This document shows positions 30,634 to 35,911 of a DNA stretch of 38,827 nucleotides, one piece after another. A program made the translations under genes and the position numbers. The notes below the pieces were generated by a model that saw nothing but the letters and a program-made list of their open reading frames with translations, was not told the DNA's origin and did not search any database. The stretch comes from Candidatus Heimdallarchaeota archaeon (GTDB lineage Archaea; Asgardarchaeota; Heimdallarchaeia; Hodarchaeales; Hodarchaeaceae): positions 1-38,827 of the forward strand of contig JBHLSH010000032.1 of assembly GCA_048881705.1 (NCBI GenBank). Direction: 5' to 3'. Each line of letters starts with the position of its first letter. Within the stretch, counting starts at the first letter, position 1.

Positions 30634-33213
30634 ATGGACTTGTTTGACCCACTTTCGGATCCTCTCAGTTTGACCGTTTCGGTTGTCCTATCACTCTCCC
30701 CCCTTATAGTACTAGCTATCCCGTACTTGTTTACACGTCGAAAAAAGGATAATATACGAGCGACTATCTATAATAGGGGATTCATTGGTTTTTGCGTTTT
30801 TTATTTGGCGTATTTTATTTTTCCCAGCTTCTTGAATGCCTTGGTTCCTAATCCCTCCGCATACTTGGAACAGCAATACTATCCTATCTCAAACAGTAAC
30901 CAGTGGTCAACGGTGTGGGATTCAGAAGCCATTATCCAAACTGGAGCGATTTTTATTCCTATTCCTTTGTTGGTCAAATATCTCTTCCAACATTTCGTGA
31001 ATAGCATCGTTATCTTCCTGACATATCCCGTAGTAATTCTTGCTTTTGTTTTCGGTTTATCTCCATTCTTATCGATGGGAATTATTCTCTATCAGACATG
31101 GGGAGATAAAAGAAATGATCGAAAACCATTGAAAAGACTAATTAAACGGAATAAGGAAGACTTGAAGGAATTTCAAGCCCAGAAAAAGCATGCAACGGGG
31201 GATGAACTTCAAGATTTAAATACGGCACTTGAAGAACTAGAGAAAGACAATGAAGATCTTCGGAACCAATTGCTCCAAGTCAGTGGGGTAGGACAACGAA
31301 TAAGAGAAATTCAATATGAAACGGAAAACTCTCCATTCCAGGAAATATCAATCCGTGTAAAAGAGAAGGATTGGGATAATGAGCGAGAGCTCTTGAAAGT
31401 CTTGATTGCAATACTACCAATTACTCTATTCTTGCTTAATACTATTCTTCTTGCTCTTGGTGAGGAGGAAAATCCTAGCTTGCTTCAAGGGACGTCCATG
31501 GGGTGGTTCCTAGAAATCTTCTTCGCCTATATTGCGGCGATAGTTTTCTCCGTATATCTGATTAAGGCCAGCCGATTATCACGAAAAGGGAAATTTCTGG
31601 GTAATCAGCTGTATGTGGCAATGGTCCAAAGTCTATCTACCGTTGGAGCGTTCATGTCAATCCTGGCTGTCTTTCTTTTTTTAATCCTCTTCTCCCAGCA
31701 GATTTTTGTTATTTCTTATTTCGTTGTGTATTTCCTAATGGTATCAATCTTTTTTGTCCTTTTTCTAGATATATTTGAACCATTTTCGATTTATCTTCTT
31801 ATTAAAATCATCGAAACCAGTAAAGACATCCGAACCTCTTTCAGACGTATTTCTATGCTAAATACGGCAAAATCCTTTTTATCTGGAGTGAGTATTGGCA
31901 TCCTATTAGCATTCATGTTCTTTGCATATCGAGTGATAATACAGAGTATTTTTGTCAACATTAATACTGTCCAATATGACACCTTCTTTTGGTTAACACA
32001 AAATTACGCTACGTTCCTAATTGCGGCCCTCTTACTTCTTCTTTTTCGGAGATGGAATTGGAGTATAATTGGAACTGCTGTTGTCACATATCTTTCGATC
32101 TTAACAGTGAGCTTAGCTCTTATCGGTTGGTATTCTGGTGGATGGGCCACGCTCCTTGGACTACCACCGGGCTTCCCAAGTTTTGCCGGGGTGCCATTGA
32201 TTACACCTTTTATAACAATAGAATCCACCTTAGCTGGTTTTGGTGAAGCTATAAACTTAAAATGGCTTACAAGTGTGTGGAAAATGGGCAAATATGCAGA
32301 TGTTTATTTCTTGGTGCCTGAGTTGCATCAAATTCCGGTAATATGGCGTGGAACGGGAGGCAGTACTTTTCTGGGCATCCTTTCCATTCCTTACAATCTT
32401 CTGCATCCTTTGGCAATCATCCTTATCTTCGGCGCCTTGCTTTTCCTTGCGAGGATTCAATTCCATACGAGAACACAAAAAGGAGAAGGGAAAACCCAGT
32501 ACAAATCCGTTTTTTCCGATATGACACGGTTGCCTTCGGTGGGTGAAATATCCCGAAAATCAGATATCATTCTAATAGGATTCTCTGAAACCATTGATGA
32601 TCCTATCGCAAAGGCTGCAATAGACGAACGTTGGGAAGAAATCGATAATGGCGAGGTTTTACGACAAACCCTCTCCACTCAACTTCGTCCCATTGGAGAA
32701 CTCTCAAATTCCTCTGGTTTGAGCAACACAGAGATTCACCATATTTTGGATGAGCTCACTTTTGATTTGGAGGTCCCTTTAACACAGGTTTTGTCTCTTC
32801 TACATAGGGAATTCGCCTATTCGTTTGAAGAAGTAACAATCGACTCTCTGCATGTTATGATGCTTGATGGCCGCGCTGTTCTTGCCCACACGTTTGGCAA
32901 AGAATCAATGGTTGAACCTGCCTTGGTATCAGGTCTTTTTTCGGCTATAACTTCTTTTGCCAAAGAAACTGTAAGGAGTGAACAACTCCTCAGAACCATC
33001 GATCACGGAGATGTTGTTTTGACCATTGAGTATGCAAAGTGGGTGTTTGCAGCCATCTTTGCTGATTCCACATCTACGGAACTTCGAAGAAAACTGACTG
33101 ATTTTCTAGTGGACTTTGAAAAACGTTATGCGAAGGTTCTTCCAACCTGGCTTGGAAATTTGGACATCTTCAAGGGTGAACAAATGATTATTGATCGGGA
33201 ATTTATGGGCTAG
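30634..33213 (+). CDS. Polytopic membrane protein (~12-13 TM) with a coiled-coil insert and C-terminal longin-like domain
   Basis: Many hydrophobic segments; heptad region at ~31120-31285; HTH-like IGELSNSSGLSNTEIHHILDEL; longin-like SLHVMMLDGRAVL...EPALVSGLFSAITSFAKE...LRRKL..F...FEKRY from ~32833. Confidence 0.8.
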   Translation: MDLFDPLSDPLSLTVSVVLSLSPLIVLAIPYLFTRRKKDNIRATIYNRGFIGFCVFYLAYFIFPSFLNALVPNPSAYLEQQYYPISNSNQWSTVWDSEAIIQTGAIFIPIPLLVKYLFQHFVNSIVIFLTYPVVILAFVFGLSPFLSMGIILYQTWGDKRNDRKPLKRLIKRNKEDLKEFQAQKKHATGDELQDLNTALEELEKDNEDLRNQLLQVSGVGQRIREIQYETENSPFQEISIRVKEKDWDNERELLKVLIAILPITLFLLNTILLALGEEENPSLLQGTSMGWFLEIFFAYIAAIVFSVYLIKASRLSRKGKFLGNQLYVAMVQSLSTVGAFMSILAVFLFLILFSQQIFVISYFVVYFLMVSIFFVLFLDIFEPFSIYLLIKIIETSKDIRTSFRRISMLNTAKSFLSGVSIGILLAFMFFAYRVIIQSIFVNINTVQYDTFFWLTQNYATFLIAALLLLLFRRWNWSIIGTAVVTYLSILTVSLALIGWYSGGWATLLGLPPGFPSFAGVPLITPFITIESTLAGFGEAINLKWLTSVWKMGKYADVYFLVPELHQIPVIWRGTGGSTFLGILSIPYNLLHPLAIILIFGALLFLARIQFHTRTQKGEGKTQYKSVFSDMTRLPSVGEISRKSDIILIGFSETIDDPIAKAAIDERWEEIDNGEVLRQTLSTQLRPIGELSNSSGLSNTEIHHILDELTFDLEVPLTQVLSLLHREFAYSFEEVTIDSLHVMMLDGRAVLAHTFGKESMVEPALVSGLFSAITSFAKETVRSEQLLRTIDHGDVVLTIEYAKWVFAAIFADSTSTELRRKLTDFLVDFEKRYAKVLPTWLGNLDIFKGEQMIIDREFMG

Positions 33214-35911: not shown

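Follow-up and report, generated by a model that had tools for sequence, protein, structure and literature searches.

A longin-bearing membrane protein and a longin-bearing HerA-type ATPase are encoded tail to tail in Hodarchaeales-like Asgard archaea

The stretch of DNA analysed here, a window of 38,827 nucleotides (nt), is contig C32 of a 3.96-Mb Asgard (Hodarchaeales-like) genome, G000. It contains two large genes that encode P0001, a polytopic membrane protein with a C-terminal longin domain, and P0002, a HerA/DUF87-type ATPase with a C-terminal arm predicted to comprise a longin domain, a winged-helix-like domain and a small α/β domain (Table 1). An earlier reading of the letters, referred to below as the original prediction, had described the two genes as lying tail to tail at a distance of 64 nt, and this layout is borne out by the open reading frames (ORFs) and their translations: the genes are convergent and 64 nt separate their stops. 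Upstream of P0001 lie the genes of a membrane-anchored regulator (P0005) and of two surface proteins (P0003 and P0004), and the window is otherwise populated by housekeeping genes (proteasome, exosome, LonB, CDC48 and eIF5A). A scan for promoters and terminators was uninformative, as its models are bacterial and the host is an archaeon.

Table 1. Features of the convergent gene pair, of the upstream genes and of transporters with a related domain. Positions refer to the window unless another contig of G000 is named; aa, amino acids; TM, transmembrane.
Feature	Position	Strand	Details
P0001, membrane-longin protein	30634 (ATG)-33213	+	859 aa; 865 aa from upstream TTG 30616; ORF and translation
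P0001, cytoplasmic coiled-coil hairpin	31093-31281	+	aa ~160-222; model helices H118-190 and H196-220
P0001, conserved TM core	31288-32535	+	aa 225-640; orphan family
P0001, C-terminal longin	32836-33210	+	aa 741-865; includes LVSGLFSAITSF
P0001, longin motif LVSGLFSAITSF	32923-32958	+	read in the sequence
P0002, HerA/DUF87-type ATPase with longin, winged-helix and C-terminal-domain extension	33278-35911	-	877 aa
P0002, ATPase core	34577-35590	-	aa 108-445; Walker A GAGKS, Walker B IIVCEEAH
P0002, longin domain	34040-34423	-	aa ~497-624; AlphaFold2 model and VIA-align
P0002, longin motif LVSGFLTAISGF	34277-34312	-	read in the sequence
P0002, putative winged-helix-like domain	33740-33982	-	aa ~644-724; helices and strand at model positions 219-273
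P0002, small α/β C-terminal domain	33281-33601	-	aa ~771-877; model pLDDT 85-94
P0005, membrane-anchored regulator	25272-26765	+	two winged-helix domains; HTH_20 E 3.8e-12; TM segments
P0003, second surface protein	26838-28397	+	C-terminal anchor; kept in genus
P0004, exported surface protein	28526-30304	+	signal peptide, Thr-rich stalk, C-terminal TM anchor
MFS-longin transporters L008-L010	G000:C35:4903-6591, G000:C47:20971-22677, G000:C35:37-1719		E 1e-11 to 1e-13

Hydropathy and the positive-inside rule predict 11 TM helices for P0001, with the N-terminus outside and the C-terminus inside. The original prediction of a polytopic membrane protein with a cytoplasmic coiled coil agrees with this topology and with the full-length AlphaFold2 (AF2) model (predicted local distance difference test (pLDDT) score 84, predicted template modelling (pTM) score 0.86), and only its count of about 12 TM helices has to be lowered. 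The loop that holds the coiled-coil hairpin (residues 161-255) contains 19 lysine or arginine residues, which places it on the cytoplasmic side; the hairpin itself gave generic coiled-coil matches only (VIA-align). The protein further carries a 77-aa external loop and a cytoplasmic tail. No match to the TM core was returned by Foldseek against the PDB, by VIA-align (48,161 chains) or by a shape search of the ESM Atlas, in all of which the whole 865-aa model served as the query, and novelty of the fold does not follow from this, because the core was not folded alone. An ESM Atlas feature search with residues 225-640 returned nothing. A profile search of 1.84 billion representative proteins recovered 69 clusters only; all of the 72 homologs bear Asgard taxon labels, and every full-length member of the family has the longin domain. 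At the level of sequence, P0001 represents an orphan family in which TM core and longin are constantly combined. The protein database puts the label PF28006 on some of the homologs, and neither P0001 nor P0003 or P0004 has a match in Pfam, NCBIfam or PADLOC.

P0002 belongs to the HerA/FtsK superfamily of ring-type motors, as judged from its sequence, and the original prediction of a ring ATPase was correct. DUF87 (PF01935) matches residues 108-318 with E 2e-19 (71 bits against a Pfam cut-off of 23.2), solved HerA chains in the PDB match with E 6e-21 to 1e-18, of which 4d2i aligns over residues 108-426, and the Walker A and Walker B motifs are intact on direct reading. P0002 misses every NCBIfam equivalog cut-off widely, be it for HerA, anti-phage HerA, CedD or VirB4: the HerA-equivalog test (NF040819/NF040937) gave 101 bits versus 970 and 76 bits versus 800, CedD gave 57.6 bits (cut-off 600) and VirB4_plasma 16 bits. 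PF01580 (FtsK_SpoIIIE) likewise stays below its cut-off (15 bits versus 24, E 0.017). Hydropathy gives no TM segment besides an artefact in the Walker A region. About 100 residues lie N-terminal of the core, at the end where HerA proper carries its HAS-barrel domain.

The part of P0002 that follows the core (residues 445-877) was modelled with AF2 from an alignment of 44 homologs that share its architecture (pLDDT 75). The top structural matches of the longin domain are nearly all longins, with Sec22b at Z 9.7 and the Lokiarchaeal Roadblock-Longin protein 8yqg at Z 9.6, and further matches to VAMP7, SEDL, synbindin, Lst4 and AP sigma; the result is the same in a re-examined Foldseek list and in an independent VIA-align search of the 48,161 chains. 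Residues ~644-724 match the winged helices of MCM, Cdc6/ORC, MukF, Nse and CAP with Z 6-7.7 (VIA-align), and on the strength of the model we assign them, with moderate confidence, to a winged-helix-like domain. The C-terminal domain is conserved, with invariant Asp, Arg and Trp residues plus an NPxxGxK motif, and gave no fold match in searches in which longin and winged-helix matches took up the lists and the ESM Atlas feature search returned low-scoring hits only.

According to the AF2 models, P0001 and P0002 both contain a longin fold, as had been proposed: the two domains superpose on solved longins with Z up to 13.8 and 9.7, respectively. VIA-align (48,161 chains) aligns the P0001 domain with CPLANE Fuzzy (Z 13.8), Sec22 (Z 13.2, root-mean-square deviation 2.4 over 117 residues), VAMP7 (Z 12.9) and AP2 mu (Z 12.4). 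Neither domain matches any Pfam longin or roadblock family, even at E up to 10. The two are homologous to each other (BLASTP E 4e-4; hhalign probability 96.5%, E 8.5e-10), and the signature that the original prediction had noticed in both can be read directly as LVSGLFSAITSF in P0001 and LVSGFLTAISGF in P0002; a degenerate form of the motif has no further copy in the six frames of the window. Within the P0001 family, no part is better conserved than the longin: its mean column identity is 78%, as compared with 41% for the whole protein, and this fits a domain that is held by binding partners. Longins are central adaptors of eukaryotic membrane traffic, and many are found in Asgard archaea. Typically, they form dimers and interact with small GTPases (PMC10933270). 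Complex prediction of the two longins from separate alignments gave a score of 0.02 against a mark of 0.32, which speaks neither for nor against binding; direct docking of the P0001 and P0002 longins is plausible but unproven. In the literature, we found no description of a HerA-longin or membrane-longin pair or architecture.

We surveyed 400 Asgard genomes. The P0001 family is present in 149 of them. Among these are many genomes of other families, which carry a form of about 750 aa, and all 21 other genomes of the window's genus, where identity to P0001 is ~61-66% and in one case 93%. The full P0002 arm is limited to this genus within the sample and is found in 21 of its 21 genomes. There, the ATPase with this arm is always convergent with the P0001 gene, and on the same contig wherever the P0001 gene is whole; the two genes are directly adjacent in 19 genomes, and a stretch of 1.6 kb intervenes in the other two. 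Gene order between CDC48 and MptE is the same, as far as the retrieved sequence extends, in the nine genus genomes that were taken with wide flanks, and because the whole 20-kb region is collinear, adjacency at the level of the genus is weak evidence of a functional link. An apparent truncation of the P0001 gene in genome G065 was considered as a counter-example and rejected, as it is an assembly gap of 100 N. The 93%-identical ortholog of a sister genome (L079, G070:C30:24718-27312) has one in-frame TAA, either a sequencing error or a recent disruption.

In four metagenomic contigs (L024, L026, L055 and L077), a convergent DUF87 ATPase adjoins a membrane gene whose product is 34-49% identical to P0001. 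The C-terminal arm of these ATPases is homologous to that of P0002, and the small C-terminal domain is kept in L024, L026 and L077. The cores, in contrast, belong to a different clade. In a maximum-likelihood tree of 17 ATPase cores, including seven paralogs from G000, the four cores group with the G000 paralogs on contigs C66 and C150 (support 99/98), whereas the P0002 core family is, among the seven paralogs, the sister of the NurA-linked HerA of G000 (support 91/91). BLAST agrees, with E 1e-41 to 1e-49 for the four cores versus C66 and 1e-3 to 1e-4 versus the P0002 core. When P0002 is aligned with P0049, identity is 50-56% in the longin but 2-28% in the core; within the genus, by contrast, the core is the best conserved part of the ATPase. 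The alternative motors of L024, L026 and L055 are also without the ~100-residue N-terminal stretch of P0002. Eight genes of L077 follow the order of the window, namely those for MptE, PTPS, TrxR, the ATPase, the membrane protein, P0004, P0003 and P0005. Because the cores are of a different clade while the arm is homologous and L077 is collinear, the data are most simply explained by an exchange of the motor, at its original site, for a different HerA/FtsK-superfamily member, with the longin/winged-helix/C-terminal arm and the position retained. The synteny on which the original prediction had proposed to be judged is thus found in 21 of 21 genus genomes and in four divergent contigs, motor replacement notwithstanding.

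The alternative-motor form is rare: the full architecture occurs in seven proteins. More distantly, it is related to DUF853/YjgR-like ATPases, some of which carry helix-turn-helix (HTH) domains, bacterial relatives being among the carriers, and the motors of L024 and L026 match CedD, CedB and TraD best, though weakly (E 1e-8 to 1e-11). The closest relative in G000 of the motor found beside the membrane gene elsewhere is the core of the C66 paralog (G000:C66:17928-21023; L075:9926-12994, minus strand), a DUF87 protein of 1022 aa with a C-terminal extension of ~550 aa, whose gene sits among those of four LVIVD-repeat proteins and adjoins a small GTPase-like gene.

Comparison with known systems places the pair near several of them. 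P0002 resembles the HerA of the NurA-HerA complex (4d2i, 9x1l) in core type and in its Walker A and B motifs, and the NurA-linked HerA is its closest paralog in G000; it differs in the lack of an adjacent NurA, in its 430-aa longin/winged-helix/C-terminal extension and in the use of a core of another clade by sister lineages. The absence of nurA, mre11 and rad50 from the window, which had been noted at the outset, holds for a domain scan of its ORFs of at least 100 aa, short nested or opposite ORFs not being scanned; NurA of G000 is encoded at C73:15667-16500, beside another HerA at C73:17057-17653. FtsK has α, β and γ domains, with the ring motor, a C-terminal winged helix and a membrane anchor in the same polypeptide. 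P0002 shares with FtsK and SpoIIIE the superfamily and the layout of a motor followed by a winged helix, but the membrane anchor would here be a separate protein reached via longins, and a role of P0002 on DNA would be one by analogy. CedB, CedD, VirB4 and TraD are likewise motors of the HerA/FtsK superfamily with polytopic membrane partners; all scores lie far under the corresponding equivalog cut-offs, however, and the locus is chromosomal, among housekeeping genes. No pilin, Ced or type IV secretion partner was recognised among the scanned neighbours, small pilin-like ORFs not being included in the search. With eukaryotic and Asgard longins (Sec22b, VAMP7, AP sigma/mu, TRAPPC1/4, Mon1-Ccz1, SRX and 8yqg), the two domains share the fold, with Z up to 13.8, but they are fused to an 11-TM protein and a HerA motor and have no match to a Pfam longin at the sequence level.

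The pair and the motor swap suggest that the two proteins work together at the membrane. We tentatively favor the reading that P0001 and P0002 form a functionally linked motor module close to the membrane of Hodarchaeales-like Asgard archaea, for which we put the chances at somewhat less than even. In such a module, the longin, winged helix and C-terminal domain of P0002 would serve as a targeting and regulatory arm, which would recruit the hexameric translocase to the cytoplasmic side of the membrane, to P0001 itself or its vicinity, either by longin-longin pairing or through a third protein that binds both longins, for instance a small GTPase or roadblock protein. Positioned at the membrane, the motor could pump or remodel a polymer. 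By analogy with the HerA and FtsK motors and in view of the winged helix, DNA would be the most likely substrate; the proteins encoded by the neighboring envelope genes are the alternative. The longin folds, as modelled, the homology of the two domains, the conserved pairing and the in-place exchange of the motor are results of the analysis, whereas physical contact between the proteins, the substrate and the direction of transport are matters that we infer rather than observe. A bolder and, in our estimate, unlikely version would be an Asgard-specific "split FtsK-like" machine, in which a hexameric translocase is docked on the orphan membrane protein via paired longins, the motor being interchangeable and the longin/winged-helix arm its defining part.

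The locus offers a concrete and testable two-protein case, with one longin on the tail of an orphan membrane protein and a homologous one on a neighboring ring motor. If the two dock, longins recruited machinery to membranes before eukaryotes arose, and a new way to anchor pumps of the HerA/FtsK type would have been found; a split FtsK-like machine would moreover be an archaeal precedent for the recruitment of machinery to membranes by eukaryotic longins. Should they not dock, the locus remains an example of the ease with which the longin module joins Asgard transporters, repeat proteins and motors.

Several observations weigh against a functional link, and they are best considered together with the possibility that P0001 and P0002 are independent proteins with an inherited adjacency, each longin acting as a general Asgard adaptor or sensor, for example by binding a small GTPase or a roadblock protein. 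P0001 would then be a tail-regulated transporter like the MFS-longin fusions, and the ATPase would act elsewhere. The shared motif counts for little as a sign of partnership, since its helix characterises a large longin family of Asgard archaea, of which hidden Markov models (HMMs) of either domain detect more than 20 further ORFs in G000, and the two longins are not mutual nearest paralogs. The module is also promiscuous. In G000, three transporters of the major facilitator superfamily (MFS; Table 1) have a cytoplasmic C-terminal domain of the same longin family, as detected with the P0001-longin HMM, and so has a TPR protein on contig C25; elsewhere among Asgard archaea, FG-GAP propellers, HEAT repeats and giant proteins carry a longin plus winged-helix module of the P0002 type as a fusion partner. 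Many roadblock/longin families and extensive domain shuffling have indeed been described in Asgard archaea (bioRxiv 10.1101/2020.10.19.343400; PMC10933270). The co-distribution invoked by the original prediction holds for the 21 genus genomes and the four divergent contigs but is one-sided beyond them, where the membrane family (149 of 400 genomes) reaches much further than the full ATPase arm (one genus): neither the ATPase nor P0004 was found within 8 kb of genes of the ~750-aa subfamily in any of 20 sampled loci outside the genus, and L025, L054, L056 and L057 carry the membrane gene with no ATPase beside it. In genome G075, moreover, a gene for a 467-aa B12-binding/radical-SAM-like protein with a CxxxCxxC motif (L068:10290-11693) separates the pair, and the gap in G077 (L067) is of the same size. 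Being convergent, the two genes are not co-transcribed. Next to the 20-kb collinearity within the genus stands the retention of unrelated pterin genes beside the pair in distant contigs; TrxR (in L077), PTPS and MptE, for which a link to the pair is not plausible, are kept nearby over the same distances in several contigs, so that synteny alone is weak and inherited gene order explains part of it. What independence leaves unexplained is the replacement of the motor in place with retention of the arm and of the position by the membrane gene, and the persistence of the pair in L055, where the rest of the cluster is rearranged. On balance we rate independence, the main rival, as only slightly less probable than the linked module.

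Two further explanations appear less probable to us. P0002 might be a HerA paralog of DNA repair or anti-virus defense, with an extension that senses a signal or binds DNA and with no role at the membrane. The original prediction had named a grouping of the ATPase with NurA-partnered repair HerA as an argument against itself, and because the P0002 core is the sister of the NurA-linked HerA this argument applies in part, yet P0002 is a separate paralog without a NurA of its own, and the canonical NurA-HerA pair is encoded elsewhere in the genome. The best NCBIfam and PADLOC matches of P0002 are HerA models, and both the winged-helix-like domain and the HTH domains in bacterial relatives of the alternative motor would suit such a role; against it, all NCBIfam equivalog cut-offs are missed by far. 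In PADLOC, generic HerA models alone match P0002, and the adjacent effector (Sir2, DUF4297 or a nuclease) that would mark an anti-phage HerA is lacking, P0001, P0003 and P0004 having no PADLOC match. The housekeeping setting and the collinearity across the genus are unlike those of a defense island and led us to reject a mobile element or defense island as the nature of the region. Repair or defense is thus rather improbable. We rate lower still, as very unlikely, that the five genes form a unit for envelope assembly or secretion, in which the pair would export, anchor or turn over P0003 and P0004 under the membrane-bound regulator P0005. ATPases of the FtsK/HerA superfamily do power the type IV and type VII secretion of proteins, and P0004 accompanies the membrane gene throughout the genus and in L024, L025, L054, L055 and L077: its homologs lie directly upstream in all of these except L054, where the distance is 3.4 kb (E 1e-41 to 6e-57). 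P0005 has homologs in L077 (E 2e-101) and in L055 with its rearranged cluster (E 5e-56), accompanied by a clear homolog of P0003 in L077 (E 1.7e-31) and a weak match in L055 (E 0.004), so that P0004 and P0005 stay near the pair despite changes in gene order. However, L026 has the pair without P0004, the TM core of P0001 is unlike any known secretion component in whole-model and profile searches, and the signal peptide of P0004 is an ordinary one, because of which P0004 needs no dedicated exporter.

The C-terminus of P0004 consists of a Thr-rich stretch, the sequence SGFELL, a hydrophobic helix and the basic tail YRKRR, and resembles archaeal anchors of the PGF-CTERM type; an oligo-T tract follows the stop at ~30323-30333. 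In L025, a soil-metagenome contig with the membrane gene and P0004 and without the ATPase, an Arf/Ras-like small GTPase gene (L025:3772-4299, minus strand) is located 3.7 kb upstream. In the window, a Roadblock/LC7 gene (22700-23128, plus strand, E 1.3e-8) and an ARPC4-like gene (23289-23750, plus strand, E 9.8e-9) precede the cluster by 2-3 kb and are collinear with it across the genus.

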